Notes under the pieces: model-generated
Database searches by the model: none
Told to the model about the DNA's origin: nothing
What the model saw: only the letters and a program-made list of their open reading frames with translations
Shown here: positions 8,294-63,238 of the stretch, piece after piece
Layout of the letters: each line of letters begins with the position of its first letter
How positions within the stretch are numbered: the stretch's first letter is position 1
Origin: a virus
IMG/VR virus record: IMGVR_UViG_3300042940_003205
Coordinates: 39,318 to 103,317 of that record
Strand: one strand, 5' to 3'
DNA: 64,000 nt
Position numbers and translations under genes: made by a program

Positions 8294-8296
8294 AAT

Positions 8297-11200
8297 TTAT
8301 TCCGATATCAAAATATTGTCATTTGAGATAATACGCATACCTTTAGGGTGGAATAACTCATTATTATCTCCCCAAGTTGATAATATTGTTCCAGAATTAT
8401 TAACTAAATGCAATCTTGAATTTGCGCCAAAGTTAATTACATCATCAGTTAAAACATAGAAGTTAGAATAGTCTGTTGCTGGTCCTGGAAGTGCTTTGAT
8501 TACATCATTATTAAATGTAAGTTTAGTTTCAATATAGCCATTAGAAACATTGTAAACTTGTAATTTTCCAGTGTCATTTGTATCTGATGCTGGGCTACCT
8601 AAAAGAACATTACCATTGGCAAGCAAATATGCAGATCCTAACTTGTTATCATAATAGTTGACAATATCTGATGTAATAGCCCATTTCAATGTTAATTCTG
8701 TGTCATCTACATAGCACAACACCGAATTGTAATGAGGTTGAGCAATTACAACAAGTGAATCTGCTTCATCATATTGAACAGAGAGTGGATTGTAGATGTT
8801 GGCAAAATATATTGGTCCTTGCAACAAATCTAAAATAATATTATCCGTTTGAGAATTTGGACCATACATTGCAGTGGTTGATACAACACCATCACCATTA
8901 TAGTCAGTAACAGAATTTACAACATTAGTAGTAGCAGGCAATCCTGTAGTAATTGTTGATGTGCCTGTAATTGATGTGCTTATACCAGCTACAAATTGTT
9001 CTGTCCTATTAGTTGTTGAGACTGTTGAAGTTGGAATAGTTGCTGACAATACTGTATTTGTATTTATAGAAGATCCAGAATTTGTAAAGCATCCTTTATC
9101 CAATCTAACCTTTTTTGTAAGAGCATTACTTATAGCTGTGTTTAAAGCAATTCCTTCAACTGTATTGTTGATAGTAAATACGTATGTTGCAGAAGAATCA
9201 AATATTGGTTCTAAATAATCGCCAGAAAGCCTAGTATCATCTCCTCTTACAGAAATGTTATTATAAGTGATATAAATTTTTGTCAAATCTACAAATGATA
9301 TATTTTGCGAGAAAGCAATATAGATTTTTCTTGTTTCTGGATTAAATGAAGCAGACAAAGCGACAAAGTCTCTGGAAGTGAGTTTAAGCCTTATATTACC
9401 TTGAATTAATTTTGTGAATACTCCATTGATATCTGTCATTATAATTCTGTCATTCTTACTATCACAAATTATATTTCCACCTGTAGGCAATGATTGATAG
9501 TCAGTAGGTGTATCCAAACCATAATTTGTAGACTTCAGAAAAATCTGATTAGGGGTAAGATAATTTCTCAAGGTTCCAGCATCAATTCCATCTTCTACTG
9601 TTGTTTCAAGAACATTACTTGCTGCAGATATTAAGTTATTGTTTCTTAAGTAAATCCAATTTCCTACGTTTGAAGTATCAAAGATTCTTAAATAGTTTGT
9701 ATTGTCTGGATTTGTAATTCCGTATCCAGCATTTTTGTTATAGTAAACATCACTTACCCAACCAAATTTTTGATTTGTAGTATCAGTAAGATTTCTGTCA
9801 TAAGTTCTAGTTGTAGCACTACCAACAGTTGAATAGTTGATTCTTAAATTATTTACAATTGGAGCTAAACTCTGAAATTCATTGGAATAAAGTGAGAACA
9901 ATACATCCAAGTATCTTCCAGTGCTTGAACTTGTATTTGGGGTAGCGATAATTACATCAGTTTCAGAAACAGTTTTAAAATTATAGAAAAGATCTGAACT
10001 AACATTAGATCTACTTTGTATAGTATATTTAGTTCCCAAAGGAACATCAATATCATACTGTATTTGATTGTATTGGGTATTTGAATCTCCAGAGTCAAAT
10101 CTCATTAAAAAATTAGCATTCTTATATCTATATGTGTCATTCCAAACGAAAACAGCAGAAGTTTGATCTGTGGTATTTCTTCTTGCTAATACTAAACTAT
10201 CATTGCTGCCTGATGCGTTAATCTGTGCATCTGTTGGGGTGAGTAATTCAAATTTTGTTTGCTTTTCAGCGTTCCACCCTTGATCTGTTGAAAAATAAAA
10301 ACCAAAACCCAAAACTGAAGATTTTAAACTACTATCACCAAAATCAGATAAATTTATAGAAGAATATGTTGCTGTTGAACCTATATATCCATAAGTTGTG
10401 TCATCAAATATCTTCACACTTGTTGCTGGAGTTATATAAATCGTCGAATATCCAGTTCCAGTATTAGGAGCAAAATCAATTTTTTGATCATATTGTAAAT
10501 TTGGATCTGTACTTCCATTACCAACAACCAAGAACATATAAATTTTACCTAAAGCTGCACCTGTTTCTCCAAGACCTGCAGAAAAACCAAATCCAACTTT
10601 AGAATTTAAATCCAAAGATACTGGTTGATTGAAAAGAGTGTAAGCATATAAACTAGTATCAACCTTTACTTTGTTTGAAGTGTAAGTAGTTGTAAAAACT
10701 AACCCTGTGTCCCAAGATCCAGTTGTGTCAAAAACGCTTGAAACTGGCTGCGTAAGTGTCAAGTAGTTCAAAGGAGTATCTATTGTGAAGCTACCTGTTG
10801 TTGCTGAGCCTGAAATAATAATATTACTAAAGAATGAGTTGGTAGTAGATCCCAAAGATGCTGCTACTGTTTTAGCTTGCAAGAAATCATTCTGTACTAC
10901 AAAAGATTTATCTCCCACAAAGCTGCTTGATGTGACAGAACCACTAATTCCTGACCCTGATGCGTTTGGAGCAGTGTCATAAATTGTTGCTAAAGTATAT
11001 TGGCTTGGTACTGATGTAGTTTGCTTAAAATTAGCAGAATTACCAGTTGAAGAGTTTGCCGAAGTGTTTGGGTAAATACCTGGAACATAAGTTAAGGTAT
11101 TTATTTGCGTTGAGTCAATAAAAGTAAATCCAACTCCACCGGATTTTTTTAAAGCTATCAACATTTGTAATCTGTTAGCTATTGAAAGATCTGACATCTT

Positions 11201-11962
11201 GTCATTAGCATCATTGTTTACAACAGCCAATAAAGCAGTTTCTAATTGATCGTGTGTTAAATTGCCTTTATCTTCTAAACTATTATGGCTTATATTTGGG
11301 AGTCTTGATGAGTCTAAGATACCTGTTGTAATTTTTGCAGCATCGACGGAACTTATATTTTCACTTGTTAATTGATTTTTAACTTCAATCGATAAATCTA
11401 TTGGAGAAGGATTACCTGTTCCACCAATATGTTTATGATTCTTAATAAGATATGAAAGCGTTGAAAATAAAGTTATATCTTGTCTGTTTGTTTCAAATAA
11501 ATTTACAAGATTGCTAGCTACGTCAACTTCAAGATATCCTAAAGAGATGTAATTTACTGTGTCATTTATTTCAGTTAATGAAGCAACAAAATCGACATCT
11601 CCAGTTATAGCAGTGTTTGCATTTTCATAAGCATAAACATAAACTTTTGAGATTCCAACTGTGGTGGGAATTGTGGGCAAGGTCACGTCTTTAGAAGAGG
11701 TGGTATTTCCAGCCTTATAAGAAACAAAGCCTTTTCCCGAAGTAATTGTAATTTTTGTTAATTTAAATTCGTTTGAGTAAGTTTGAATACGCCAAGATGG
11801 GACTGATGGATCTTCTTCTATAATTCCATTTTTAAAAATTTGATACAGATTGTACATTTGATTCTCAATGGCTTTAAAGCGAAGCTCGTCTAAATCAATG
11901 TTTTCTGAAAGGTCTTGGTTTGGTTCTATATATCCAAACCCATAAATTGGTGTATTTCCCAT
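8297..11962 (-). CDS. Tail fibre/baseplate protein (1221 aa) with C-terminal NHL-like beta-propeller
   Basis: Fibre-like N-terminal segment (NHKHIGGTGNPSPIDL...DAAKITTGILDSSRLP). Propeller blades (LDTPTDYQSLPTGGNIICDSKNDRII; LFHPKGMRIISNDNILISE). Confidence 0.65.
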   Translation of the reverse strand: MGNTPIYGFGYIEPNQDLSENIDLDELRFKAIENQMYNLYQIFKNGIIEEDPSVPSWRIQTYSNEFKLTKITITSGKGFVSYKAGNTTSSKDVTLPTIPTTVGISKVYVYAYENANTAITGDVDFVASLTEINDTVNYISLGYLEVDVASNLVNLFETNRQDITLFSTLSYLIKNHKHIGGTGNPSPIDLSIEVKNQLTSENISSVDAAKITTGILDSSRLPNISHNSLEDKGNLTHDQLETALLAVVNNDANDKMSDLSIANRLQMLIALKKSGGVGFTFIDSTQINTLTYVPGIYPNTSANSSTGNSANFKQTTSVPSQYTLATIYDTAPNASGSGISGSVTSSSFVGDKSFVVQNDFLQAKTVAASLGSTTNSFFSNIIISGSATTGSFTIDTPLNYLTLTQPVSSVFDTTGSWDTGLVFTTTYTSNKVKVDTSLYAYTLFNQPVSLDLNSKVGFGFSAGLGETGAALGKIYMFLVVGNGSTDPNLQYDQKIDFAPNTGTGYSTIYITPATSVKIFDDTTYGYIGSTATYSSINLSDFGDSSLKSSVLGFGFYFSTDQGWNAEKQTKFELLTPTDAQINASGSNDSLVLARRNTTDQTSAVFVWNDTYRYKNANFLMRFDSGDSNTQYNQIQYDIDVPLGTKYTIQSRSNVSSDLFYNFKTVSETDVIIATPNTSSSTGRYLDVLFSLYSNEFQSLAPIVNNLRINYSTVGSATTRTYDRNLTDTTNQKFGWVSDVYYNKNAGYGITNPDNTNYLRIFDTSNVGNWIYLRNNNLISAASNVLETTVEDGIDAGTLRNYLTPNQIFLKSTNYGLDTPTDYQSLPTGGNIICDSKNDRIIMTDINGVFTKLIQGNIRLKLTSRDFVALSASFNPETRKIYIAFSQNISFVDLTKIYITYNNISVRGDDTRLSGDYLEPIFDSSATYVFTINNTVEGIALNTAISNALTKKVRLDKGCFTNSGSSINTNTVLSATIPTSTVSTTNRTEQFVAGISTSITGTSTITTGLPATTNVVNSVTDYNGDGVVSTTAMYGPNSQTDNIILDLLQGPIYFANIYNPLSVQYDEADSLVVIAQPHYNSVLCYVDDTELTLKWAITSDIVNYYDNKLGSAYLLANGNVLLGSPASDTNDTGKLQVYNVSNGYIETKLTFNNDVIKALPGPATDYSNFYVLTDDVINFGANSRLHLVNNSGTILSTWGDNNELFHPKGMRIISNDNILISE

Positions 11963-12189
11963 TACTTAATTTCTTGTGGCTTGTATTCTGATGTTACTTT
12001 TTCAACGCCCCAGTTTGCATATCCCCAGCGTACAACATCTTGTTCTTCTATTATATTATTTTTATTTACGTTAATGACTTGTAAAGCTTGTGTCACATTT
12101 GACCTTAAAGTCAAACCGCTTTGCATATTGATTGTATTTTGTCTAATTTGATCATTTATTACAAAAGACAAAGATTGAAATAATGGCAT
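11962..12189 (-). CDS. Small hypothetical virion-associated protein (75 aa)
   Basis: Fills the gap exactly: TAATG-coupled to the downstream gene and 1 nt from the upstream stop. Confidence 0.6.
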   Translation of the reverse strand: MPLFQSLSFVINDQIRQNTINMQSGLTLRSNVTQALQVINVNKNNIIEEQDVVRWGYANWGVEKVTSEYKPQEIK

Positions 12190-12190
12190 T

Positions 12191-15127
12191 TTACGCTCCT
12201 CTCAAAGAAATTGGTAAATTAGTACCTGATACGATAGCAGTGATTAAGTTATCTGATTTATTATATGAGTAGTTTATAGATCTATAAACATATAGATCTG
12301 TGGCGTTTGTAGTAGTTCCAAATACACTAGATCCCAAAAAAACATTTATTTTGAATTTTCCGTGAAAATTAAGAGGTTTTGACACATAGCAAGAAAATGA
12401 AATATTACTTATTGGAGTTTTAGAAACTAATTCTATACTGTCAGTTACTCTTTTTAAAACTTGATAGTCAGGGATTTCATTTCTTTGTGTAGCCCAGTTT
12501 ATATATTTTTTAAAACCAACATAAGTAGGTTGTGATGGATCTTTAGGAGCGCCTGCTAGATATCCCAACAAATCTACTTGCTTTTGTAATGGTAAATTAG
12601 TCAATGAAACTGATCCTGGAGAAAATCTTTCATCTGCTAGAAAACCCGTAATAGCAACACCAAAAACTCTTACACCAGATGAAAGTAAATTCATATCTGT
12701 ATCTATAGTGTATTCGTCAATAAGCAATCCATGAATATCTTTTTTAAATCTATCAAGATACTTAGTTGTGTTTAAGGCATTACTATCAAACGAATATCCA
12801 GTACCTGCCGAATTTAAACCTGTAAATTTCAAATCATCGTCTATATTGTTATTTCTGCATTCTAATTTAAATCCGTAATTCTCAGCCCATCTAAAAGTTG
12901 GCAATGAATATGGATTATTGAGTCTTTCTAAGAGTTTGTCTAATTTATCAACAATCTTATCTAATGGATTTAATTTTATGAGGTCTTGATTATTTGTTGA
13001 ACTACTATTAAGTCTCAAATCAATACCGTAAATTGAACCACCATTAGCTAAATCTGCGTTATTTCTTGAATAATAAGACCAAAATCCAGATGCAGCCATA
13101 ATTGAATCAAGAGCAAGATCATGTCTCATTCCTGCAATCATCATATTTTTTTCAAAATAAACATTGCTCAGAGTAAATGTTCCAACGTCAACACAAGTTA
13201 ATTCAAATTTACTGTCATTACCGCTTCTTGAATAAGATGTGCTTGTAATAAAACCCTGAAAATATGTTTGTAAATCACCATATCCAGAATCTATAGTTAC
13301 TACTAATAAATTATTTTCGATAGCATCTATAAATTTTTGACCCTCTTGTGAATCAATATTTCTAAGCGTAATTGAGGCAGTCTTTTTAATTCTTGATAAA
13401 TTTGACAATGATGATGAATCACAGTTTACAGACCATCTTTCAACCCATGAAGTAATATCCCCAACAGAATAAAACAATTGATTCAATATAGGATTTACAA
13501 ATTTATAATCTGTTGCACCACCGCTACCAGTACCTACATTTGGAAAATTATTAGCAGCAAGTACTCCTGGGTGTGGAACCTCAATTTGCATAAATGCTGG
13601 ACCTTCAATTGTAGTTTTATAGAATAATTTAAACAAAACAGTTTTTTTATCTGGATCAGCGCTGCTTGATATAGGTTCTTTGAAGATTGTTATATCTTCA
13701 AACTGATTACCAATTAATCTCAAGTCTGCAAAATATGAAATGTTTTTATCTTTTGGGTTTGTTGTCTCATTGAATCCAGTGTTTTGTGGAGAAAGATTAA
13801 TTCTATAAGATGACAGTTCAAACCAAGCTTTTATAACATTCAAAAATTCTTGAAGTTTTTCATTTTCATTTTTGGGATTTATTTTTTTCTGAGAATACTT
13901 AAACTCGGCTACAATATAATTTTTTCTTAAATTTGCTGGCTGATCATTATTAAAATTATTAAATATCAAAGCTGAATATCTAAACTTTATATTTGTATTA
14001 GATAAAGATATAGAAACTTCTGTATCTGACGGGCAAAATATTTCTCTATTGCTAAAATTAATTATTGTGTTCCATCTAGTTATATCTGGACTGAAGCCCA
14101 ATAACATATTTGGTCCTACAAAATGAACATAAATATCATATGAGTCCATACTGTTTTTATCAAGAATAGGAGCAATTAAATCTGTTTGAGTTATATAGTC
14201 TTTGATGTTTGGATCATAAATTTTTAATACTGGTTTACTATCAATCTTAAACTCAATATAAAAATCATTTATAAATTTATCGTTTATAATTTGAGGCATA
14301 ACTGATATTCTGAAAGCAGATGTATTAATCTGCATATTACTTACAGAAAAATTTATATGAAAACCATTATTACCACTATATCCTCTAGCTTGTATAGGTT
14401 CGCTAGTGCCATCTGGATTATATATTGTTGCTCCAGGCTGATAAACTGCGTCATAAGAAGTTGGAAAAATTCTCTTTATAAAGGTATTAGTTTTTTCAGA
14501 AGTAACTTCTATTTGTGCCCCGTAAGCTGGATCTTTAACGGTTCTTAGTGTACCTGTATTGGCTCCACTTATTGCTGGGCCAATATATTTATATGCGTCT
14601 CTGCTACTATCTACTACCTGCCATATATTATATGTAGTAAGCACTGGCACCGATGATGCATTATCATTATCAAAAAATGGGATTTTTGGCACATGTTGAG
14701 ATGGGTCATTAAAATTTTCTGATTGAGCCTGTACGTTGCCTTGAAAGGGAGGACTGTCAACAAAATTTGGATTATATCCCTCAGATGGTCCTTTTAATTT
14801 GTTCAGTACTGGATCAACTTCTCCAGGAGCAATTGCTCCAAAAGCAAATGTACAGGATGATGCACTAATTGCTGTATTAATTTCTGGAATTCTAGCATTT
14901 TGTAAAGAAGATAGGACTCTTAATCTTCTGCTATATTTTGGTTCTGTAGTTCCATCTTTGTAAGTATAAGAAGGATGGAAATCATAGTTTAAGACATTTA
15001 AGTTGTCTTGTGATTTTGTTGCAGTGGAAGATGTATATTCCCCAGAAAAGAAACCACTTTCAGGAGCATTCAAAATACTTAAAGTGACTTTTGTTTTTAA
15101 TTGTCTTGGATCTGGGGAAAGGTTCAT
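12191..15127 (-). CDS. Baseplate hub-like tail protein (978 aa)
   Basis: C-terminal half has a hub-type pattern: GDITSWVERWSV...TASITLRN...VTIDSGYGDLQTYFQGFITS...FELTCVD. Confidence 0.55.
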   Translation of the reverse strand: MNLSPDPRQLKTKVTLSILNAPESGFFSGEYTSSTATKSQDNLNVLNYDFHPSYTYKDGTTEPKYSRRLRVLSSLQNARIPEINTAISASSCTFAFGAIAPGEVDPVLNKLKGPSEGYNPNFVDSPPFQGNVQAQSENFNDPSQHVPKIPFFDNDNASSVPVLTTYNIWQVVDSSRDAYKYIGPAISGANTGTLRTVKDPAYGAQIEVTSEKTNTFIKRIFPTSYDAVYQPGATIYNPDGTSEPIQARGYSGNNGFHINFSVSNMQINTSAFRISVMPQIINDKFINDFYIEFKIDSKPVLKIYDPNIKDYITQTDLIAPILDKNSMDSYDIYVHFVGPNMLLGFSPDITRWNTIINFSNREIFCPSDTEVSISLSNTNIKFRYSALIFNNFNNDQPANLRKNYIVAEFKYSQKKINPKNENEKLQEFLNVIKAWFELSSYRINLSPQNTGFNETTNPKDKNISYFADLRLIGNQFEDITIFKEPISSSADPDKKTVLFKLFYKTTIEGPAFMQIEVPHPGVLAANNFPNVGTGSGGATDYKFVNPILNQLFYSVGDITSWVERWSVNCDSSSLSNLSRIKKTASITLRNIDSQEGQKFIDAIENNLLVVTIDSGYGDLQTYFQGFITSTSYSRSGNDSKFELTCVDVGTFTLSNVYFEKNMMIAGMRHDLALDSIMAASGFWSYYSRNNADLANGGSIYGIDLRLNSSSTNNQDLIKLNPLDKIVDKLDKLLERLNNPYSLPTFRWAENYGFKLECRNNNIDDDLKFTGLNSAGTGYSFDSNALNTTKYLDRFKKDIHGLLIDEYTIDTDMNLLSSGVRVFGVAITGFLADERFSPGSVSLTNLPLQKQVDLLGYLAGAPKDPSQPTYVGFKKYINWATQRNEIPDYQVLKRVTDSIELVSKTPISNISFSCYVSKPLNFHGKFKINVFLGSSVFGTTTNATDLYVYRSINYSYNKSDNLITAIVSGTNLPISLRGA

Positions 15128-49652: not shown

Positions 49653-50239
49653 TGAAAGATTTTATTGAATTTTACGAAAAAAATAAATCGAACATAATAC
49701 ACATTATCAATATTGATTCAGTGAAATTTATTGTTCGTGAAATAACTTGGAAAGAAGGGTTATTGATAGATGCAAAATCTTTTAGGAAAAAAGATAATAT
49801 TGTATACCAAAATTCTGAATTTGAAAAAAGAGAAATTCTTAAGCTTGCAATCTTGAGAGCATATGATTCTTCCACAGATACAGATTATTTGCCTGATTTT
49901 GAAGTATCTTTATTGGAAAAGTTAGACTATACAATTATAGAAAGATTGTGGGTTGAATATCAAAATTATCTTTATTTGAATGCAGACGAAGCTAATTTTT
50001 ATTATATTGCAACAAAAAAATATTACAATCCAAATGATACAGAAACTTACCCCGTGCCACCATTAATTGTTGAAATTGATTATATGACACGAGGTTTAGT
50101 TTCTATGAACAAAGAGGAATTTTCTAATTTGAGTATGAAAGAATTTGAAACTATTCAGTTGATTTTAGCTACAAAAAATGAAGCTAAACCTGAATCAGCT
50201 GCAAATCTTGATATTGATTTAGAAAGAGAAATGGGCTAA
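49649..50239 (+). CDS. Possible tail assembly chaperone (196 aa)
   Basis: FIVREITWKE...LEKLDYTIIERLW chaperone-like pattern; follows the tube-like gene. Confidence 0.45.
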   Translation: MMKDFIEFYEKNKSNIIHIINIDSVKFIVREITWKEGLLIDAKSFRKKDNIVYQNSEFEKREILKLAILRAYDSSTDTDYLPDFEVSLLEKLDYTIIERLWVEYQNYLYLNADEANFYYIATKKYYNPNDTETYPVPPLIVEIDYMTRGLVSMNKEEFSNLSMKEFETIQLILATKNEAKPESAANLDIDLEREMG

Positions 50240-51036
50240 ATGCTAAAAGATAAAGTATTTTTTTGTTTATTTCTTATTTCATCCGCAAATTCTGTTCTAT
50301 CCCATTGATGAAATAGATAATACGGTTCACCTTGCATATTACAAGCTTCGCCATTAATAAACTGAATATCTATATTTTTGTACTTTATAGCCTCTCCAGT
50401 AGCACACAAAGCGCTGGTATATGGATGACAATAATCAACAGTTTTCAAGTCTTTTAGATAAGGATATAAGCTTGTGTAAATACTTTGATCAGAAATCATT
50501 CCAGGTGACTTTCTATTAGCATTAGTTATAGCAAGCAAAAGAATATACATAAAATCTTTTACCTTTCCACCTATAGTTCCGCCATTAGTTATTAAATTAT
50601 TAACTCCATCGTTGTTAGGAAAAATTTGTGTTGAAGATAATATATTATGCCAGCCTAAATTGAAATCGTTTTCTGAAACTTTCATACCTTCGCAGATCAA
50701 AAATAAATCCTTATCCTTTTTTGAAGCCATATAATCAAAGGGATTTTTTTGAATAATCACATCACGAGTATCAATATACATAGCATATTCGTAATCTTGT
50801 CCATATTGTCTCAAGATGTCATAAAATAAATGATAAACATAGTAAAAAGGAGCTTCTCCAAAAATAACTTCATCATATATAGATTCTAATTTTTTTAGGT
50901 TAGAATCTGAAACATTATTCGTAAGAACAAATTTGTCAGCATTTGTAATTTTTTTCAATGATTTAAAATAAATATCTAAATCAAGGTTTTCAAAAATTTT
51001 GTCACCTGAAATGTAATTGATTAATAAATTTTTCAC
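50236..51036 (-). CDS. GT-A-fold glycosyltransferase-like protein (266 aa)
   Basis: YIDTRDVIIQKNPF (DxxD), NGGTIGG, SDQSIY, HQWDR. Last gene of the sugar operon. GTG start. Confidence 0.65.
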   Translation of the reverse strand: MKNLLINYISGDKIFENLDLDIYFKSLKKITNADKFVLTNNVSDSNLKKLESIYDEVIFGEAPFYYVYHLFYDILRQYGQDYEYAMYIDTRDVIIQKNPFDYMASKKDKDLFLICEGMKVSENDFNLGWHNILSSTQIFPNNDGVNNLITNGGTIGGKVKDFMYILLLAITNANRKSPGMISDQSIYTSLYPYLKDLKTVDYCHPYTSALCATGEAIKYKNIDIQFINGEACNMQGEPYYLFHQWDRTEFADEIRNKQKNTLSFSI

Positions 51037-51851
51037 TATATTTCCTTTGAAATGATTTTGTAAAGCTCTTTGATGCCATACTCCAAACCGTCAAAAGCTA
51101 AACCTAAATCTGTATTTTTTCCGCAATAAGATAAGCCTAAATTTTCATCTAAAATATTGACATCAACTTTATAATTAGACAAATTATTTATGATATTAGC
51201 AATGTCACTTAATTTGTATTTGCTTTCATAAACGCAATCAATGGTACTTGGTAAGTCTTGATAATTTATATACATTTCTAAAATATTTAAAAAATCATCA
51301 ATATAAATAAAATCCATATACCTATCTTGATGAATTACAATTGGTGAATGGTTGATGTAATTATTGACATTACTTGCGATCATTCTATTTTTTTCTTCGT
51401 TCTCAGCAAAAACATTGAATAGTCTTAGATTATAAAAGTTATCATACTTTTCAAATAATCTTGAAATTATATTTTTGCTCAAACCATATGGATCTAAAGG
51501 TAATGAATTAAGGATATTAGAAGATTCATTGATTTCTTTTGATCTATCTAATTCTGCCCCAGAACCAAAATGAATTAGTTTTTTGTAACTTGCTCTGTTT
51601 TCAGCAATGTTCATAGAAATCAAAACATTATCGTAGAAAACATCTTTACTATCTTCAATTGATCTTCTTCCACCAACAATAGCAGTATTTATAACTACAT
51701 CAAAAAAATTTTTTTGAAAAAAATCGTCAACTTGTATTTTATTGGTTAAATCAAGTTCATTTCTAGAAATTGTAATAAAATTATATTCTTTTAATTTTGA
51801 AATTATATTCTTGGCTAAAAAACCATTAGATCCAGTTACTAAGATATCCAT
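51036..51851 (-). CDS. NAD-dependent epimerase/reductase (extended SDR), YerF-like candidate
   Basis: ILVTGSNGFLA; FGSGAE; YGLSK; LRLFNVF. Confidence 0.85.
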   Translation of the reverse strand: MDILVTGSNGFLAKNIISKLKEYNFITISRNELDLTNKIQVDDFFQKNFFDVVINTAIVGGRRSIEDSKDVFYDNVLISMNIAENRASYKKLIHFGSGAELDRSKEINESSNILNSLPLDPYGLSKNIISRLFEKYDNFYNLRLFNVFAENEEKNRMIASNVNNYINHSPIVIHQDRYMDFIYIDDFLNILEMYINYQDLPSTIDCVYESKYKLSDIANIINNLSNYKVDVNILDENLGLSYCGKNTDLGLAFDGLEYGIKELYKIISKEI

Positions 51852-51857
51852 AATAAT

Positions 51858-52859
51858 TTATTTTTTCTTAAAGTTTTGAGCGATTTCAAATATTAAATCT
51901 TCCTGTCCTGCAACAAGTTTTCTATTTCCAAGCTCAAAAATTAATGAAGAATATTCGATGTTGTAAAGCTTTGAAGCTTTGATAATTGGTTTTTCAAAAC
52001 CAGAAAACAACTTATTCAATCCTGTCAAAATATTAACTGGAGTAGAAACTGGTATTGTTGGGACAAGATATTCTAATGCATTTTCTGCTTCTTTTATAAC
52101 TTTGTTAAAATCAATATTTGTATTGAAATTATTTTTTTCTAACACTGGAATGATAAGTTCCAAAGGAGTGTTGCCAGCTCCAGCCCCAAAGCCACAAATA
52201 CAAGCATCAATAATTTTTGCTCCACATTCAACAGCCAATAAAGAATTAGCAACTGATAAGCCTAAATTATTATGCCCGTGAAATCCTACAGGCACATCTA
52301 AATTATCAACTAACAATGAAATTCTTTCTTGGATATCTTTGGGCATATAAGTACCAGTGGAATCCATTATAATAATAGCTTCAGCCCCATATGATTGCAT
52401 TATGAAAGCTTGTTCAAGAAGTTCCTTCGCTGATATTAATGCAGACATCATCAAAACACCTTGAACTTCAATATTTTTGTTCTTTAAATATTCAATATGT
52501 GTTTTTGACAAAGTTGCTTCAGTACAATGAGTTGCAATTCTAAATATATCAACTCCATATTCGATTGCTGGTTGTATATCGTCTTTTATTGTTGAAATTC
52601 CAGGAATAGAATGAACACTTAATTTAGTTTTAGAAAGATATTTTCTAGCTGTTTTAAGTACATCCTGATCTGAATGTAAGCTTTGACCAATTAAGATTGA
52701 TGAGGCACCTAAACCATTTCCGTGACCAACTTCAACAATAGGTATATTTGCGTTTTCAGCAAATATACAATACTTTTCTATACTTTCTAAATTGATTGTA
52801 TGTTTGACACTATGATTTCCATCTCTCAATGACGGATCACTTATGATTACAGTATTCAT
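51858..52859 (-). CDS. dmpG: 4-hydroxy-2-oxovalerate aldolase
   Basis: SLRDGNH, EVGHGNGLGASS, RIATHCTEA, GFHGHNNLG, LVAGQEDLI. Confidence 0.93.
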   Translation of the reverse strand: MNTVIISDPSLRDGNHSVKHTINLESIEKYCIFAENANIPIVEVGHGNGLGASSILIGQSLHSDQDVLKTARKYLSKTKLSVHSIPGISTIKDDIQPAIEYGVDIFRIATHCTEATLSKTHIEYLKNKNIEVQGVLMMSALISAKELLEQAFIMQSYGAEAIIIMDSTGTYMPKDIQERISLLVDNLDVPVGFHGHNNLGLSVANSLLAVECGAKIIDACICGFGAGAGNTPLELIIPVLEKNNFNTNIDFNKVIKEAENALEYLVPTIPVSTPVNILTGLNKLFSGFEKPIIKASKLYNIEYSSLIFELGNRKLVAGQEDLIFEIAQNFKKK

Positions 52860-53707
52860 AAATTCTCTAAAACTTTAATTGCTGCACAATTTATTATATC
52901 TAAATTCCCAGAATAAGAAGGCAAATAGTCTCCAGTTCCTTTCACCTTTACACTAAGCATCAATATGTCGTTCTCATTTATCATAGGTGGCATAACTAAT
53001 TCGTAGTAAGGAACATATTCTTTAATAAGTTTGAGCCGTTTGTAAACATTGTCCACTATATTTTCAAAATTTATATTTGAAAGATCTTTTAACTTGATAA
53101 AAATAGTAGTTTGCATATCTACACAAGGAATTGCTGGATTTATATTTAAAATTACTTTACAATTCTGAGCGTTAGAAAATTTACGAATTGCATATTTAGT
53201 TGTTTCAATATAATTATCGATATTAATACGTGTAGACATTCCAGCACTTTTAGAAGCAATTTGTGAGACAACTTCTATGTACAAAACATCTTCAATATCT
53301 TGGCAAATAGCATTGATCATAGGAAGTGATGCTTGACCTCCGCAAGTGATCATATTTATATTGTCATACTTTTGGATATCATCACCATTGATAGTAGGTA
53401 CACAAATGTGACCATTTTTAGCAGGTGTCAAATCAATAACTTTGATATTTAATTTACTTAAAATAGAATAATGTTCTATAGCGTCAAAAGCATTGGTACA
53501 GTCAAAAACAACATCATAATTTGTATTTTTTTTGAAATAATCAATACCTTCAGTAGATGAATTTACCCCCAATGAAAATGCTTTTTGTATACCTTCAGAA
53601 TTTTCTCTTCTTCCTACAAATGCAATATCTTTGTAGCCTAGTTTTATTAATTTTATTAATAAATCGGTGCCAATGTTACCAGTACCCAAAATTCCTATTT
53701 TTTTCAT
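52856..53707 (-). CDS. dmpF: Acetaldehyde dehydrogenase (acylating)
   Basis: GTGNIGTDL, DLTPA, NMITCGGQA (catalytic Cys), GDYLPSYSGNLDII. Confidence 0.93.
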   Translation of the reverse strand: MKKIGILGTGNIGTDLLIKLIKLGYKDIAFVGRRENSEGIQKAFSLGVNSSTEGIDYFKKNTNYDVVFDCTNAFDAIEHYSILSKLNIKVIDLTPAKNGHICVPTINGDDIQKYDNINMITCGGQASLPMINAICQDIEDVLYIEVVSQIASKSAGMSTRINIDNYIETTKYAIRKFSNAQNCKVILNINPAIPCVDMQTTIFIKLKDLSNINFENIVDNVYKRLKLIKEYVPYYELVMPPMINENDILMLSVKVKGTGDYLPSYSGNLDIINCAAIKVLENL

Positions 53708-55485
53708 CTTACAATTTGCTTTGATTTTTCACTTATGTTTACAATCATATTTTCTTTTAATTCTTCAAAAGAAATTATTGGAGACATTTCTTCTAATGAA
53801 GGGGCAAATATAGAGCCATCATTTTTTGAAACACCTTTAACTTTTGGTATAAAATCTTGTTCAGGATTCATAAATACTTCAAGTACAGATGGTTGATCAA
53901 ATGAAAGAAAATCTTCCATTGTCTTATCAAAATCTTCCATCGACCTTAATTCAAAATGCTTATACCCAAATGCTGTCATTAATAAATTGAAATTTGGTAA
54001 ACCCACACCAGTTTGAGCATTGACACCTACAAATTTTCCTTGAAACAACATTTTTTGTGTGTGTTTGATCATAAGATAGCCATCATTGTTAAAAATTATG
54101 ATTTTTACATTTAGTTTGTTATCAATTATTGAATGAGCTTCTTGAAGATTCATCATTATTCCGCCATCACAATTTAAGCACAGCACTGGTTTTTCAGGAC
54201 ACGCAAATGCAGCACCAATAGCACCTGGTAATCCGTACCCCATTTCACCTAATCCAAGCGAGGTAAACATTGTTTGGTTTTCTTTCAGCATTATTGTTTG
54301 ATGGCCACTTAATAATGCTGTGCCCATATCTGTGACAATAATATGGTTATCCGCTAATTTTTCTGATAGTTTGTCAATAAAAGAATATGAATTTACGTAA
54401 TTATCTTTTGTAAACGATTTATCAACTAAAGGATATTTTTCTTTTAAATTGTTGCAATAATCAATCCAGTCATCTTTCGGTTCAATGGCTTCGAAATTAA
54501 TTATATTTTCTAAAAAAGTATCGCAAGATTGAATATGAGTCTCAGTGTAAAAAGTAGAGTATTTTTCAATCTCTGATTCATCTATATCAACTACAATGAT
54601 TTTTGCTTCTCGTGCAAATTGCGAAAAATCATAACCTGCTTGAGGTAATGCTAACCTACTGCCAAGCACAACTACAACATCGGCATTTTGAACAATAAAA
54701 TTAGCAGCTCTTTGTCCATAAAGACCAAATCTTCCAAAATGTAATTGATGATAATTATCAATAACATCTATTGCAGACCAAGTCAAAAGAGTTGGTAAAG
54801 AATTTTTTTCTATAAACTTTTTAAACAAACTATGGGCATTTGATAACCTTACCCCATTGCCACAAACAATAACTGGTCTTTTAGAATTTTTTATAATTTC
54901 ATATGTACTATTGTAATTACTTGCAATTACTTCTTTTTTATCGAAATTCCAAGCTTTAATACTTACTAGCTTTGACTGAACATCAAATGGAATATCAATA
55001 AGAACAGGACCAGGACGACCATTGATTGTTTCAAAATATGCTTTAGATAAATGATTTTGTATTTCACTACAGTCATCAACTCTTACTCCATATTTGACAA
55101 CTTTTGATGTCATATGAACGATATCCAAGCCTTGAGTTCCATACATTCTTAGATTGGAATGAATTTTGCAATAGTTAGATGATTCTTGTCCACAAATGAT
55201 GAAGCCAGGTATAGAATCGGCCCAATTACTGACTATTCCAGTAACAGCATTTGTTGCTCCACCACCTGCGGTCACTAATGCTGCTGAAAGTTTACCTGAA
55301 GCTCTGAAATGAGCACCCATTGCCATAACACAAGCTTGTTCGTGGTGCAAAAAAACGATTTTAGTAAATCCAAGTTTAGTAATAGAATCGAATATGTGTG
55401 AATTGGCAGAACCTATTATTCCAAAAACAATCTTAATATCAAGTTCTTTCAAAAATTCTGCAATAACATCACTTACTTTATTCAT
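53704..55485 (-). CDS. ThDP-dependent acetolactate-synthase-fold enzyme, YerE-like sugar carboligase candidate (593 aa)
   Basis: HHEQAC (catalytic Glu), GRPGPVLIDIP, GQRAANFIVQNAD, GLGEMGYGLP, ThDP motif CDGGIMMNLQE...NNDGY. Start reassigned to MNKVSD at 55485. Confidence 0.85.
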   Translation of the reverse strand: MNKVSDVIAEFLKELDIKIVFGIIGSANSHIFDSITKLGFTKIVFLHHEQACVMAMGAHFRASGKLSAALVTAGGGATNAVTGIVSNWADSIPGFIICGQESSNYCKIHSNLRMYGTQGLDIVHMTSKVVKYGVRVDDCSEIQNHLSKAYFETINGRPGPVLIDIPFDVQSKLVSIKAWNFDKKEVIASNYNSTYEIIKNSKRPVIVCGNGVRLSNAHSLFKKFIEKNSLPTLLTWSAIDVIDNYHQLHFGRFGLYGQRAANFIVQNADVVVVLGSRLALPQAGYDFSQFAREAKIIVVDIDESEIEKYSTFYTETHIQSCDTFLENIINFEAIEPKDDWIDYCNNLKEKYPLVDKSFTKDNYVNSYSFIDKLSEKLADNHIIVTDMGTALLSGHQTIMLKENQTMFTSLGLGEMGYGLPGAIGAAFACPEKPVLCLNCDGGIMMNLQEAHSIIDNKLNVKIIIFNNDGYLMIKHTQKMLFQGKFVGVNAQTGVGLPNFNLLMTAFGYKHFELRSMEDFDKTMEDFLSFDQPSVLEVFMNPEQDFIPKVKGVSKNDGSIFAPSLEEMSPIISFEELKENMIVNISEKSKQIVR

Positions 55486-55489
55486 TTTT

Positions 55490-56443
55490 TTACCACATAA
55501 AATTTTCTTTGTAATATTTGACAATTGTTTTGATTTCTTCATCAAAGACACAATCAGGTTCCCAACCTAAAGCTTTAATTTTTGAATCATCTAAAGCATA
55601 TCTTACATCTTGTCCGGGCCTATGAACATCAAAATTTATAAAATTTGAATAATCATCAAATTCTTTACCATAAAATTCATTAATAATTTTTTTCACTGTT
55701 TCAATATTTGATTGTTCAAAACCACCAGCTATATTATAAATTTCATTATTCGCACCAGATTCAATAATTTTTACCACTGCTCTGGCTGTATCTTTAGCGT
55801 GTAACCAATTTCTGATAGGCGATCCATTATTATGCAAAGGTATTTGCCTTCCTAATGATAAAAATTTGCATGCTTTAGGAATAAGTTTTTCAACATATTG
55901 TCCACATCCATAATTATTAGTTGGACGAACAATTACATATGGTAATTCATAAGTTCTAGACCAAGCCATTATCAATTGATCTGCTGCAGCTTTTGTTGCT
56001 GAATAAGGATTTGAAGGTCTGAGCAAGTCAGCTTCGTTATGCGCTCCACCTGAAATATCACCATAAACTTCATCTGTACTAAAATGAATAAAGGTTGGTA
56101 ATACATAGCCTTCTTTCTTATAATTTTTAAGTAATTCTAGAATATTATAAACACCGACTACGTTAGAATGTAAAAAATCCTCACTTTTTCTAATTGAATT
56201 ATCTACGTGAGTTTCAGCTGCTATATTGATGAAATAGTCACAATCTACAAGCCTATCTAAATTGCATATATCTAATTTCTCAAATTTAAAGTTTTTATAT
56301 GAATCAAAAACTTCTTTGTAATTAAAATCCGAGGCGTATGTACAATTATCAATGCCATATACATACCATCCTTGGTCTAGACACAATTGTGTTACGTGCC
56401 TGCCTATAAACCCCAAGCAACCTGTTATATAGACTATTTTCAT
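55490..56443 (-). CDS. rfbB: dTDP-glucose 4,6-dehydratase-type SDR (317 aa)
   Basis: TGCLGFIG, AAETHVDNSI, STDEVYGD, PSNPYSATK, RPGQDVRYALD. Start reassigned to 56443. Confidence 0.88.
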   Translation of the reverse strand: MKIVYITGCLGFIGRHVTQLCLDQGWYVYGIDNCTYASDFNYKEVFDSYKNFKFEKLDICNLDRLVDCDYFINIAAETHVDNSIRKSEDFLHSNVVGVYNILELLKNYKKEGYVLPTFIHFSTDEVYGDISGGAHNEADLLRPSNPYSATKAAADQLIMAWSRTYELPYVIVRPTNNYGCGQYVEKLIPKACKFLSLGRQIPLHNNGSPIRNWLHAKDTARAVVKIIESGANNEIYNIAGGFEQSNIETVKKIINEFYGKEFDDYSNFINFDVHRPGQDVRYALDDSKIKALGWEPDCVFDEEIKTIVKYYKENFMW

Positions 56444-56483
56444 AAAATCATTATACGGATATATTAGGTATAATGTTTTTATG
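56441..56483. promoter_or_regulatory. Back-to-back divergent -10 promoters (leaderless type)
   Basis: Both strands read GTATAATG-x-TTTT-ATG, with TATAAT exactly 6 nt before each start codon, inside a 37-bp intergenic region. Confidence 0.7.
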
Positions 56484-60598: not shown

Positions 60599-61519
60599 AT
60601 GTCTAGTTATCCTGAAAGAAAAAAAAGATTTGAAGAGCTTAAACAAGCTTGGTCACTCAATCAATTGGATGATCTTATGCTTCAATTTGATCCACCACAA
60701 GATTTATTATCAGAATTTAAATTTGCCGTTATGCTTTACATTTGTAAAGCATTTGATTTTGAATTCACTTCTGATGAAACTGATTTTATGAAAAGACTTG
60801 ACAGTAAGAGATCTTTCAAGGATAACATTACTCCAAACGGAGCTGTTGTACCAAAAAAAGAGTATCAACTTGAATTCAATATGGTTCTAAGAAGTTGGTC
60901 AAAGTTAGTACAAAATATGATTTCTGGTAATCCAAGTTTACTTAATAAAATAAGAATGACACCTAATGTTAGAATCAAGTTTGGAGTAGAACTTGAAGAA
61001 AATTATGGTAGACCTTTGAACACCAGTATTCCTCATTCAGATGCTTGGATAGATGGACCTTGGGGAATTATTTGTTTTACTCCACTTCTTGGTGACGTAG
61101 AAAACAATAATTTATATCATTACAAGCCAAAGAATGTTGATGAATTTAGTGACGATTGGCTTGCTTTATCTCCAACATTTGGTGATATGCAATGGACTCT
61201 CGAATATTACGAGCAGTCTGATGAAATTACGCCAATTAAGGGCAAAGTTCACTTAGTTGATTATGCCTTGATTCATGGGACACATAGAAACGAAAATTGT
61301 GGAACAAGAATTTCAATTGACACCACAATCTATGTGGGTAATTATGATGTTCACCAAGATAGACAATCTGAATATATTGATGAAATGAAAATTTTTGGAG
61401 AAGACGTTTTCATTACAACCAATAGATCAATTTTTGAAAACCAAGTATTTGACAAAAAAACTTCGTTCTCACATTACACATCGGGCACTTTAAAAATCCA
61501 TAATTGTAATAATGACTAA
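60599..61519 (+). CDS. 2OG-Fe(II) oxygenase-like protein (306 aa)
   Basis: HxD (PHSDAW), distal His (IHGT) and RxS (TRISID). GAGG SD. Confidence 0.7.
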   Translation: MSSYPERKKRFEELKQAWSLNQLDDLMLQFDPPQDLLSEFKFAVMLYICKAFDFEFTSDETDFMKRLDSKRSFKDNITPNGAVVPKKEYQLEFNMVLRSWSKLVQNMISGNPSLLNKIRMTPNVRIKFGVELEENYGRPLNTSIPHSDAWIDGPWGIICFTPLLGDVENNNLYHYKPKNVDEFSDDWLALSPTFGDMQWTLEYYEQSDEITPIKGKVHLVDYALIHGTHRNENCGTRISIDTTIYVGNYDVHQDRQSEYIDEMKIFGEDVFITTNRSIFENQVFDKKTSFSHYTSGTLKIHNCNND

Positions 61520-62342
61520 TTTTTGTTTAGACACCTTTGAAAAAATTTCATATTGTAGACATTTTGAAAATTTTGTATATGAAAAAATTCAAGATAAAAC
61601 AATAAAAATACCAGTTTATTTATCAGCTGGACAAGAAAGCATACCTTGTTCAATAGCTACATATGTAAAAGACAAAATTTCAAATCCCAATATTTTCATA
61701 CAACATAGAGGTCATTCTACGTATCTTGCTTTTGATGCACCTCCTGAAAAATTAGTAGATGAATTATTGGGATTAAAAACAGGTTGTTCTTTTGGCATGG
61801 GTGGCTCTGCATCAATTCAGTCAATTGAAAAAAACATTTATGGTCACGATGGGTTGATGGGGTCACAAGTACCCATAGCTGTTGGGCATTGTTACGAAAC
61901 AAAACACCCTACTATTGTCTTTATGGGAGATGCTTCTGCTGAGGAAGATTACGTTGGTGCAGCTATAGGATGGGCTTCTACCAAAAACTTACCCATACTT
62001 TTTGTGGTAGAAGACAACAATTTATCAATTTTAACAGAAAAAAAAGTAAGAAGAAATTGGCATATGCATGAATTGGCTAGAGGATACAAAGTTGACGCAT
62101 ATGATATAAGTGATGATCCTTTAGAAATTTCTAATCATCTTAAAAATGTTTTCAATGGTCCTTTATTATTAAATATAAGGACTATTCGAAAGTACTGGCA
62201 TGCAGGAGCCGGAATTGATGGTGAGTATTTTGACAGATACGAATGGCTCAAAAAAACCTTACCATCTGAAGTTTTAGAAGTTGATAAATATAATAAAAAC
62301 AAGGTAATCCAATTATGGCAATCACGCTTAGAGAAACTATAA
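61512..62342 (+). CDS. ThDP-dependent E1 alpha-like subunit (276 aa)
   Basis: PVYLSAGQE, HRGHSTY, GMGGS, ThDP motif MGDASAEE...VEDNNL. Confidence 0.85.
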   Translation: MTNFCLDTFEKISYCRHFENFVYEKIQDKTIKIPVYLSAGQESIPCSIATYVKDKISNPNIFIQHRGHSTYLAFDAPPEKLVDELLGLKTGCSFGMGGSASIQSIEKNIYGHDGLMGSQVPIAVGHCYETKHPTIVFMGDASAEEDYVGAAIGWASTKNLPILFVVEDNNLSILTEKKVRRNWHMHELARGYKVDAYDISDDPLEISNHLKNVFNGPLLLNIRTIRKYWHAGAGIDGEYFDRYEWLKKTLPSEVLEVDKYNKNKVIQLWQSRLEKL

Positions 62343-63238
62343 AATCAGTAGTTAAAAACCACCTTGTTAACAAAAAAGGCAAAGCATACGGACAATGCCT
62401 TACTGCAGTTGGTTGGGTAGGTGGAACTCTTCCTGAACTTTATGAAGAAGATGGTATGGTTGAGCTATCAATGGCTGACGTTGCTGGCGGATCAATTGTT
62501 GTTGGAGCAGCACTTTCAGGTACAAAACCATTTTATGTTGTCAGGTATCAAGGATTTCAGTGGTACAACTGTGTTTCTATTGTAAACTACGCTGCAAAAT
62601 CAAAATCATTATGGAATAGACCTTGTCCAATATTTGTGAGATCAATTGCAATGGAAGGAGGAATAGGACCAGTAGCTGGATCATCACACCATTCATTAGT
62701 CTATAGAATGCCTGGAATCAAAGTTGTTAGCCCTATGACTTCAAAAGAATATTTATCAGTTTATGATAAATTTTTAAGTGAAGATGATCCATATTATGTC
62801 TCGGAACATAGAAAAAGCTACGATAATATAGAAGATTTAAACGATATTGTACTTCACGAAAAACCTGATTTTACTTTGTTCCCAATTTCTATCACAAGAT
62901 TTGAAATGGAAAAACTTTTGAAAATTATGGATTCTTATAATGTCAAAATAAATGTTTTCAATATTTTTTGGTTAAAGCCACTTTTCATATCTGATGATGC
63001 AATTCAAAGCTTGTTTAATAGTAAGTATGGAGGACTTGTTCTGGATGATGATTATGTGTTAGGTTGCCAATCAAGTATAGCAAATATATTGTCTGATAAA
63101 AGTAATAAAATTGTAAGATGCTTAGGTATTCAAGATAAAACTGCCGGATTTTATTCTAACGTAGATAATTTGCCACCGTCTGCAGATCAAATAGCAGAAC
63201 ACTTATTACTTGTAAAAAATAAAATATACCCTTCTTGA
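62315..63238 (+). CDS. E1 beta/transketolase-like subunit (307 aa)
   Basis: ELSMADVAGGSIVVGAAL, GSSHHSL, MPGIKVVSP, DPYYVSEHR. Confidence 0.8.
   Translation: MAITLRETIKSVVKNHLVNKKGKAYGQCLTAVGWVGGTLPELYEEDGMVELSMADVAGGSIVVGAALSGTKPFYVVRYQGFQWYNCVSIVNYAAKSKSLWNRPCPIFVRSIAMEGGIGPVAGSSHHSLVYRMPGIKVVSPMTSKEYLSVYDKFLSEDDPYYVSEHRKSYDNIEDLNDIVLHEKPDFTLFPISITRFEMEKLLKIMDSYNVKINVFNIFWLKPLFISDDAIQSLFNSKYGGLVLDDDYVLGCQSSIANILSDKSNKIVRCLGIQDKTAGFYSNVDNLPPSADQIAEHLLLVKNKIYPS

Follow-up and report, generated by a model that had tools for sequence, protein, structure and literature searches.

Within a 64,000-nt stretch of viral DNA (the window; positions 39,318-103,317 of IMG/VR record IMGVR_UViG_3300042940_003205, a 103-kb contig), we analyzed six co-directional minus-strand open reading frames (ORFs) at 50236-56443, which overlap or nearly abut one another. 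They encode an RmlB-like sugar-nucleotide dehydratase, a thiamine diphosphate (ThDP)-dependent enzyme, a DmpF-like dehydrogenase, a DmpG-like aldolase, a short-chain dehydrogenase/reductase (SDR), and a 266-aa protein. We consider it probable, with moderate confidence, that they constitute a branched-sugar module of the erwiniose type and that its carrier is a large tailed phage. CheckV puts the completeness of the record at about 29%, and the gene absences reported for it apply to the 103-kb contig, not to the whole virus.

Enzymes of the cassette and the proposed pathway

In the proposed pathway, the RmlB-like enzyme would convert a host-made nucleoside diphosphate (NDP)-glucose, probably dTDP-glucose, to NDP-4-keto-6-deoxyglucose. 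The DmpF-like enzyme would form acetaldehyde from acetyl-CoA, and the DmpG-like enzyme would join the acetaldehyde to pyruvate, yielding 4-hydroxy-2-oxopentanoate, probably with 4R configuration. The ThDP enzyme is predicted to decarboxylate this acid, which would yield a C4 acyl-anion equivalent, and to join the latter to the sugar at its C-4 ketone; the product would be a tertiary alcohol with a 3-hydroxybutanoyl branch. Reduction of the C-1' ketone of the branch by the YerF/ErwF-like SDR would lead to a 4-C-(1,3-dihydroxybutyl)-6-deoxyhexose nucleotide, from which a soluble GT-A protein might move the sugar to an acceptor, for which our favoured guess is a protein of the virion (tail) or else a glycan attached to such a protein. 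A route of this kind to a C4 branch, with DmpF and DmpG (DmpFG) working in reverse, had been suggested in a first-pass annotation of the sequence, and the motifs, phylogeny, gene order, and glycosyltransferase fold described below argue for it.

The same annotation had described six tightly coupled genes in one direction with intact catalytic motifs, and both descriptions held. The genes for the ThDP enzyme and the DmpF-like protein as well as those for the DmpF- and DmpG-like proteins overlap by 4 nt, the DmpG-like gene and the SDR gene are separated by 6 nt, and the latter overlaps the gene of the 266-aa protein by 1 nt. Catalytic motifs were confirmed in the RmlB-like, ThDP, DmpF-like, DmpG-like, and SDR proteins. 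Five of the six genes were identified by Pfam and NCBIfam, and none of the six proteins contains a membrane-like segment. Among the neighbours scanned, ilv genes or genes for aromatic meta-cleavage were not present, in agreement with the earlier description. The gene arrangement is not a product of chance, because the same five-gene order occurs in about 35 independent viral contigs.

The ThDP enzyme, whose gene is flanked by those of the RmlB-like and DmpF-like proteins, contains the Pfam domains TPP_enzyme_N, M, and C. When compared with proteins of the PDB by phmmer, it scored 550 bits with JanthE (8rph), 266 bits with PpYerE (5ahk), and 258 bits with acetolactate synthase (ALS) I of E. coli; the alignment with 8rph spans residues 25-613, numbered by the ORF in its original, longer version. 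JanthE is a YerE-like carboligase that accepts ketones (PMC12188165), and its rare cofactor motif CDG is found in the window enzyme in place of GDG. This motif was present in all 70 viral enzymes (that of the window and 69 relatives) and in two enzymes from Flavobacteriaceae, whereas IlvB, IlvG, and IlvI of Salmonella have GDG. The catalytic Glu (HHEQ) and the xDG...NN motif were kept throughout the alignment of 76 sequences, with the single exception of an Asp that replaces the first Asn in one of them. With the NCBIfam models for ALS, all scores fell well short of the curated cut-offs (e.g., 341 versus 738).

A maximum likelihood tree of the ThDP enzymes (76 rows, quick IQ-TREE run with LG+G4, support by the Shimodaira-Hasegawa-like approximate likelihood ratio test, SH-aLRT) was computed without ErwE, YerE, MMAR_2332, and JanthE, JanthE and PpYerE being compared by phmmer score alone; two bacterial enzymes encoded directly after rfbF/rfbG/rfbH (loci L003 and L004) served as stand-ins for the yersiniose/erwiniose-type enzymes. 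The cassette enzymes formed a clade that was split from Salmonella IlvB, IlvG, and IlvI by long branches with 100% SH-aLRT support, and both bacterial stand-ins fell inside this clade. The window enzyme was sister to that of viral contig L006, again with 100% support. An ORF resembling the regulatory subunits IlvN or IlvM was not found by the cassette, and Salmonella ilvB, ilvG, and ilvI are each accompanied by one. Judged by tree, PDB scores, and CDG motif, the ThDP enzyme groups with the YerE/JanthE type of sugar clusters and is no acetolactate synthase; the first-pass annotation had named a phylogeny as the check and grouping with true acetolactate synthases as a refutation.

The earlier assignment of an intact DmpF/DmpG pair was borne out as well. 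The DmpF-like protein scored 303 bits with TIGR03215 (cut-off 282), matched 7z3s, 8ih7_B, 4jn6_B, and 1nvm_B in the PDB, and retains the active-site Cys within TCGGQA. The DmpG-like protein scored 320 bits with TIGR03217 (cut-off 286) and 54 bits with DmpG_comm, matched 4jn6_A, 8ih7_A, and 1nvm_A, and retains Arg12, Asp13, and His16 together with the HGH metal site. Both proteins align over their full length with solved pairs including HsaF/HsaG and DmpG/DmpF. The residues for which the pair deviates from catabolic enzymes are stereo-determinants of the aldolase. Counting along the HsaF alignment, we assigned His83 of the window aldolase to the position of Leu87 in BphI and Phe285 to that of Tyr290. 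All 67 cassette aldolases have His at the Leu87 position, and the Tyr290 position is occupied by Phe (43 enzymes), His (15), or Met (9), but never by Tyr. BphI is strictly specific for the 4S enantiomer; its Y290F variant loses stereocontrol and the L87N/Y290F variant is 4R-specific (PMC3962088). Because the His/Phe pattern resembles that of the 4R-specific variant and ErwE of the erwiniose pathway uses the (R) enantiomer of 4-hydroxy-2-oxopentanoate (PMC9306805), we infer that the cassette aldolases form a distinct subgroup with an anabolic context, whose pocket would fit the 4R enantiomer needed by the sugar pathway.

The first gene product had been described as a dehydratase of the dTDP type, and this description stood in part. 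All of the ten best PDB matches were dTDP-glucose 4,6-dehydratases (top match 2hun, 241 bits), and the catalytic motifs TDE (residue 123) and YSATK (residue 147) are present, but the score with TIGR01181 (300 bits) lies below the cut-off of 365. The NCBIfam model for CDP-glucose dehydratase gave 72 bits. A nucleotidyltransferase gene (NTP_transferase), which had been recommended as a search target for the rest of the contig, was found neither in the 103-kb contig nor in a 99%-complete T4-like genome carrying the cassette; a host-made sugar nucleotide is the likely starting compound. The view that no C3-dehydratase is visible was upheld when the search was extended to the rest of the contig, which contains no RfbH-like 3-dehydrase gene. 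In 19 viral loci, a gene for an RfbH-like protein of 435-455 aa with 40-45% identity to bacterial RfbH is located near the cassette, and in L006 it lies directly upstream of the ThDP gene, at the place taken by the RmlB-like gene in the window. The 271-aa SDR shows weak similarity to GDP-fucose synthases in the PDB and contains the motifs GSNGFLA (GxxGxxA) and YGLSK.

The 266-aa protein had no match in Pfam, NCBIfam, or PHROG, and of its 74 metagenomic homologue clusters none was annotated. Its earlier designation as a glycosyltransferase received support at the level of the fold. D89 and D92 are invariant in an alignment of 43 sequences, and the AlphaFold model derived from this alignment reached a mean predicted local distance difference test (pLDDT) value of 92.8 and a predicted template modelling (pTM) score of 0.90. 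With this model, Foldseek retrieved retaining glycosyltransferases with GT-A fold of families GT6 and GT8 (probability 1.0, E ~1e-9, TM 0.5-0.6), among them BoGT6a, the blood-group enzymes GTA/GTB, alpha-1,3-GalT, glycogenin, and LgtC. A copy with 68% identity is located at the same position in contig L075 (see below). Based on the modelled fold, we propose that this GT-A-fold glycosyltransferase-like protein might be the transferase for the branched sugar.

Distribution among viruses and exchange of a proposed donor module

The cassette is not a one-off but common among the viruses of IMG/VR. A scan of this database with the window ThDP enzyme yielded 71 viral contigs with identities of 34-66%. 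In 64 of 69 viral relatives, the ThDP gene travels together with DmpF and DmpG; the contigs with all three genes come from T4-like phages and from prasinovirus-like nucleocytoplasmic large DNA viruses (NCLDVs). Two arrangements predominated. In 35 loci (group A), DmpF directly follows the ThDP gene, and most of these loci keep the order RmlB-ThDP-DmpF-DmpG-SDR. RmlB was 60-72% identical to the window protein, DmpF 56-61%, DmpG 66-71%, and the SDR, which follows DmpG in about 35 viral cassettes, mostly 35-49%. The gene of the T4-type major capsid protein (gp23) was present in all four group A contigs tested, which are 131-183 kb long and 75-100% complete. The cassettes of this group are located in islands with genes for GT2, GT10-like, GT11, and GT4-like glycosyltransferases, DegT-family proteins, and FkbM methyltransferases. 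In about 29 other contigs (group B; L026-L054, L059, L064, L072, L074), the DmpF and ThDP genes are adjacent and DmpG lies nearby on the opposite strand. Both contigs of this group that were tested (L038, L043) contain several NCLDV capsid paralogues, and the ThDP, DmpF, and DmpG proteins of the group are 50-59% identical to those of the window.

Outside the viruses, a pattern-limited scan of contigs from bacterial genomes returned three loci. A JanthE-type ThDP enzyme (E <= 1e-100) was encoded in 1 of 401 species genomes of Flavobacteriaceae, the one containing L003, compared to at least 70 viral copies in IMG/VR. Locus L004, from a metagenome-assembled genome (MAG) of Flavobacterium, encodes RfbFGH, the ThDP enzyme, and an SDR but lacks DmpFG, and both L003 and L004 are part of polysaccharide loci with GT2 genes. 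Among the cultured phages of INPHARED, no JanthE-type enzyme was found; all matches were genes of true ALS with at most 32% identity. Several of the ALS-matching records in this phage collection turned out to be bacterial DNA filed as phage, namely whole-genome shotgun contigs from Salmonella with lengths of 98-582 kb. In the literature searched, which is of limited coverage and no proof of absence, there was no paper tying the viral copies to branched sugars.

Two viral cassettes (L018 and L019) contain RmlB, ThDP, and SDR genes but no DmpFG. Their ThDP enzymes cluster with that of L004 (94% support), apart from all others. Since these three enzymes form a cluster of their own and their loci lack DmpFG, they are candidates for pyruvate-using, yersiniose-type enzymes.

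Another variant was found in L075 (IMG/VR 3300032297_001097; cassette at 7720-14337), whose RmlB and SDR proteins are 73% and 51% identical to those of the window. Between the genes for these two proteins, L075 has neither a JanthE-type enzyme nor DmpFG. The place is taken by another ThDP enzyme in two ORFs (340 aa comprising the N and M domains and 250 aa comprising the C domain, ~34% and ~29% identical to the window enzyme), followed by a PanB-like ketopantoate hydroxymethyltransferase (PF02548, 316 bits). PanB makes 4-hydroxy-3,3-dimethyl-2-oxobutanoate, which is another gamma-hydroxy-2-oxo acid. The adjacency of ThDP and PanB-like genes was observed in 24 viral contigs, L075 included (loci L075 and L081-L104). 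None of them has DmpFG, and in many the pair is preceded by RfbH-like and RmlB-like genes and followed by an SDR gene. The PanB variant predicts a 4-C-branched sugar with a side chain of the dimethyl-hydroxypropyl type; we know of no such sugar from nature.

The PanB exchange and the separate clustering of the ThDP enzymes from loci that lack a donor module together fit a scheme in which a maker of the donor acid is combined with a matching ThDP carboligase, and they are hard to fit to a role in amino acid metabolism or catabolism. The common plan would consist of a 4,6-dehydratase, an optional 3-dehydrase, a ThDP carboligase, a module for a gamma-hydroxy-2-oxo acid (DmpFG, PanB-like, or none), and an SDR. 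We tentatively extend this plan to a broader proposal, to which we give slightly less than an even chance: branched-sugar cassettes may be a widespread, mobile viral trait common to huge phages, T4-like phages, and prasinovirus-like viruses, in which exchange of the donor module generates different side chains on a rare sugar that virions or infected cells display, and the gene trio of the prasinoviruses may likewise serve sugar branching.

Possible acceptor, proposed donor, and probable viral origin of the cassette

Several points weigh against assigning the six genes to an erwiniose-type pathway. Each step of the pathway was deduced from homology and gene context. The nucleotide carrier is not certain, because the dehydratase scores below the curated cut-off of TIGR01181. 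The known 4-C-branched lipopolysaccharide (LPS) sugars of this class are built on a CDP-3,6-dideoxy acceptor, and neither a gene for an RfbH-like 3-dehydrase nor one for a nucleotidyltransferase was found in the contig. The kinship with the erwiniose system was derived from JanthE, PpYerE, and the bacterial RfbFGH-linked loci, the sequences of ErwE, YerE, and ErwI not being part of the comparison. The choice of the donor was deduced from the genetic context, because JanthE accepts pyruvate and other 2-oxo acids, including 4-hydroxy-2-oxovalerate, along with ketone acceptors (PMC12188165). The stereochemical reading of His83 and Phe285 draws on an analogy with engineered BphI variants, and the fold match of the 266-aa protein is moderate (TM 0.5-0.6) with an acidic pair of the form DxxD rather than the textbook DxD.

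With respect to the acceptor, we lean toward glycosylation of a virion protein, because two T4-like relatives with the cassette lack an initiating phosphoglycosyltransferase (PGT) and a Wzx flippase of their own, the cassette proteins are soluble, and tail-like genes adjoin the cassette in two contigs. Alternatively, the sugar might be attached to a surface polysaccharide of the host, causing serotype conversion or superinfection exclusion, to phage DNA, or to a small molecule, which we regard as unlikely, though less so than the other alternatives discussed below. All known sugars of this class occur in bacterial LPS or lipooligosaccharide (LOS) (PMC9306805), and the bacterial loci L003 and L004 with their RfbF/G/H and GT2 genes belong to polysaccharide loci. 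Weak counterarguments are that two T4-like genomes of at least 99% completeness, in which the cassette is located in glycosyltransferase-rich islands, have no initiating PGT or Wzx flippase of their own, that all six proteins of the window cassette are soluble, and that tail-like genes lie next to the cassette in two independent contigs.

With respect to the donor, the enzymes could make a sugar with a two-carbon, yersiniose-type branch derived from pyruvate, while DmpFG would be employed otherwise, e.g., in pyruvate or acetaldehyde supply or in balancing acetyl-CoA. The acceptance of pyruvate and several other 2-oxo acids by JanthE, the closest characterized enzyme (PMC12188165), would allow this, and L018 and L019 keep RmlB, ThDP, and SDR genes without DmpFG. 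We nevertheless consider it quite improbable: of 69 viral relatives, 64 have DmpFG along with the ThDP gene, to which it is coupled by a 4-nt overlap in the window, the ThDP enzymes of loci without DmpFG form their own subclade, L075 and 23 other contigs fill the slot with another maker of a gamma-hydroxy-2-oxo acid, and pyruvate is not accepted by ErwE, whose gene has the same genetic context (PMC9306805).

A role of the cassette as auxiliary metabolic genes for branched-chain amino acid synthesis (via ALS) and aldehyde detoxification or catabolism is highly improbable. Relatives are automatically annotated as acetolactate synthase, the ALS models are the top-scoring ones of NCBIfam although all are below their cut-offs, and prasinovirus homologs were filed under amino acid synthesis (PMC5371798, PMC5454428). 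The score of 341 versus a cut-off of 738, the long, fully supported branches separating the enzyme from IlvB/G/I, the CDG motif, the lack of a regulatory small subunit, ilvC, or ilvD at the locus, the coupling of the ThDP gene to genes for a sugar dehydratase, an SDR, and a glycosyltransferase, and the deviation of the aldolase from the catabolic Leu87/Tyr290 pair contradict it. Both the ALS/amino acid role and a catabolic role of DmpFG were rejected on these grounds and on the absence of ilv and meta-cleavage genes and the His/Phe pocket. The label of amino acid or aldehyde metabolism for the ThDP-DmpF-DmpG genes of prasinoviruses also looks like a misreading.

Chimeric assembly of bacterial and phage DNA, or a non-viral origin of the whole contig, has hardly any probability left: terminase and capsid genes, proposed earlier as a check of viral origin, were not found in the 103-kb contig (Terminase_6N, Terminase_6C, Gp23, and the NCLDV capsid family) and close bacterial homologs exist in Flavobacteriaceae MAGs, but the junction between the cassette and the tail-side genes recurs in the independent contig L075, GC content is even across this junction, a tail-tube-like gene is a neighbour, gp23 was present in the group A contigs tested, and the ThDP gene was rare among the sampled Flavobacteriaceae genomes. 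It is because of the recurrence in L075 that we regard a chimera as unlikely. Besides the glycosyltransferase gene (68% identity), L075 keeps four convergent tail-side genes in the same order with identities of 65%, 41%, 64%, and 58%. These correspond to the gene of a 407-aa protein (41% identical) and to genes for proteins of 128, 196, and 498 aa, all of which keep their place beside the sugar cassette. The 407-aa protein had an ESM Atlas feature score of 0.96 to clusters from Uroviricota, some of whose members carry Phage_tube_2 or Baseplate_Tube_p140.

The claim that the genes are carried by a virus is also in line with the IMG/VR entry itself and with other genes of the contig, which encode PhoH, a full GyrB/GyrA pair, Hsp70, DnaJ, and a UvsW-like helicase. 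Many giant ORFs belong to no family, and weak PHROG matches pointed to a baseplate hub and an Ig-like head decoration protein; PHROG scans of 28 neighbouring proteins returned almost nothing. CheckV estimated a completeness of 29% for the 103-kb contig and of ~12% for each of the 42-kb contigs L006 and L075. From these three estimates we derive a genome size of about 350 kb and therefore a huge-phage lineage.

The features of the locus are listed in Table 1. The starts of two genes had been placed too early by the ORF program, at TTG 56491 for the RmlB-like gene and at GTG 55551 for the ThDP gene. The corrected ATG of the latter is located 5 nt past the RmlB stop and results in 593 aa, which is the length of nearly all relatives. 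A TATAAT sequence is present 6 nt upstream of the RmlB ATG (window 56441-56460), where there is no obvious Shine-Dalgarno sequence, and the short divergent intergenic region has room for a minimal bidirectional promoter only. At the other end of the cassette, there is a 4-nt overlap between the gene of the 266-aa protein and the stop of a convergent gene on the plus strand.

Table 1. Features of the sugar cassette and its flanks (positions refer to the window).
Feature	Position	Strand	Basis or remark
RmlB-type NDP-glucose 4,6-dehydratase, 317 aa	55490-56443	-	ATG at 56443 read directly
JanthE-type (CDG motif) YerE-like ThDP carboligase, 593 aa (predicted)	53704-55485	-	ATG at 55485
DmpF/BphJ-like acylating acetaldehyde dehydrogenase, 283 aa	52856-53707	-	TIGR03215
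DmpG/BphI-like class II pyruvate aldolase, 333 aa	51858-52859	-	TIGR03217 and DmpG_comm
Short extended-SDR reductase, 271 aa	51036-51851	-	Pfam Epimerase, RmlD_sub_bind
GT-A-fold glycosyltransferase-like protein of unnamed family, 266 aa	50236-51036	-	AlphaFold (AF2) and Foldseek
Divergent intergenic region between cassette and plus-strand tailoring arm, 37 bp	56444-56480	.	Read directly
Divergent sugar-tailoring arm, runs off the contig end	56481-64000	+	Pfam
Tail-tube or baseplate-tube-like protein, 407 aa	48429-49652	+	Convergent, one gene from cassette

The plus-strand arm comprises a 133-aa ORF and, according to Pfam, genes for an SDR epimerase-like protein, a B12-binding radical SAM protein, a DJ-1/PfpI protein, and a cupin, followed by a 306-aa ORF, an E1-alpha/E1-beta-like ThDP enzyme pair (61512-63238), and a DUF4254 protein. 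The SDR of this arm is 87% identical to one in L006. A second E1-alpha-like gene begins at the end of the contig (63906-64000), which includes its first 31 codons, and the last 93 bases are 77% identical to the corresponding gene of L006, which is followed there by genes for an E1-beta-like protein, a DegT aminotransferase, an RmlC-like epimerase, and a PfkB kinase. These genes point to a further, second system for sugar branching that the locus may contain.

Comparison with known systems

If the proposed pathway is correct, phages and algal viruses would be able to build rare glycans, possibly relevant as antigens or receptors, from acetyl-CoA, pyruvate, and a single host sugar nucleotide. 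For JanthE-type biocatalysts, this would provide a physiological setting as well as hundreds of natural variants that differ in their donor modules, and the recurrent annotation of viral and metagenomic genes as "acetolactate synthase" or "amino-acid synthesis" would need correction. The compact six-gene cassette is a convenient set for reconstitution in vitro. To our knowledge, long-branched 4-C sugars (erwiniose, caryophyllose, gastriose) are known only from bacterial LPS or LOS, and the logic of their biosynthesis dates from work of 2022.

Sugar branches are also formed by E1 alpha/beta pairs of the AviB1/AviB2 type, which attach C2 branches to sugars (avilamycin). The window likewise encodes an E1-alpha/E1-beta-like pair, but in the neighbouring arm and not in the six-gene cassette. 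In yersiniose A formation by YerE and YerF of Yersinia pseudotuberculosis, a carboligase likewise acts at C-4 of an NDP-4-keto sugar, followed by an SDR. YerE differs in using pyruvate as donor, which leads to a C2 branch, and a CDP-3,6-dideoxy acceptor, and the score of PpYerE with the window enzyme is about that of E. coli ALS I. The best solved relative is JanthE of Janthinobacterium sp. HH01 (PDB 8rph, 8rpi, 8rpj), with which the enzyme has the CDG motif in common. The physiological substrates of JanthE were stated to be unknown (PMC12188165), whereas the phage enzyme occurs in an explicit context of sugar and donor supply.

The catabolic pairs DmpG/DmpF, BphI/BphJ, and HsaF/HsaG (1nvm, 4jn6, 8ih7) are composed of the same subunits as the pair in the window, which keeps their metal site, communication domain, and active-site Cys. 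In contrast to these pairs, the viral one has no meta-cleavage genes among its neighbours, has His and Phe for Leu87 and Tyr290, and is proposed to act in synthesis rather than cleavage. The same set of genes as in the group B contigs is known, by published description, from Micromonas viruses: MpV-1 encodes an acetolactate synthase, an acetaldehyde dehydrogenase, and an oxovalerate aldolase, the first two of which are also present in MpV-PL1 (PMC5371798, PMC5454428). In those reports the trio was filed under amino acid synthesis or aldehyde metabolism (PMC5371798, PMC5454428), a reading that differs from sugar branching.

The closest known system is the erwiniose cluster of Pectobacterium atrosepticum, in which ErwE (ThDP enzyme), ErwF (reductase), ErwI (BphI-like), and ErwJ (BphJ-like) are encoded beside genes for a CDP-3,6-dideoxy-4-keto sugar (Steitz et al. 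2022, PMC9306805). ErwE requires 4-hydroxy-2-oxopentanoate and does not accept pyruvate (PMC9306805). By its published description, this cluster resembles the window cassette in having the same four enzyme types together with a 4,6-dehydratase and a glycosyltransferase, and the proposed logic is the same: an aldolase run in the synthetic direction, ThDP-dependent addition to a 4-keto sugar, and reduction of the branch ketone. The cassette of the window differs by an RmlB-type instead of a CDP-glucose-type dehydratase, a JanthE-type ThDP enzyme, a viral carrier, and a compact arrangement with overlapping genes, and RfbF and RfbH were not found in the 103-kb contig. Since the erwiniose route in Pectobacterium has been published (PMC9306805), the combination of reversed DmpFG with a ThDP carboligase is not new here. 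What appears to be new are the viral carriers and their distribution, the RmlB-type front end, a physiological context for a JanthE-type enzyme, and a donor module that can be exchanged.

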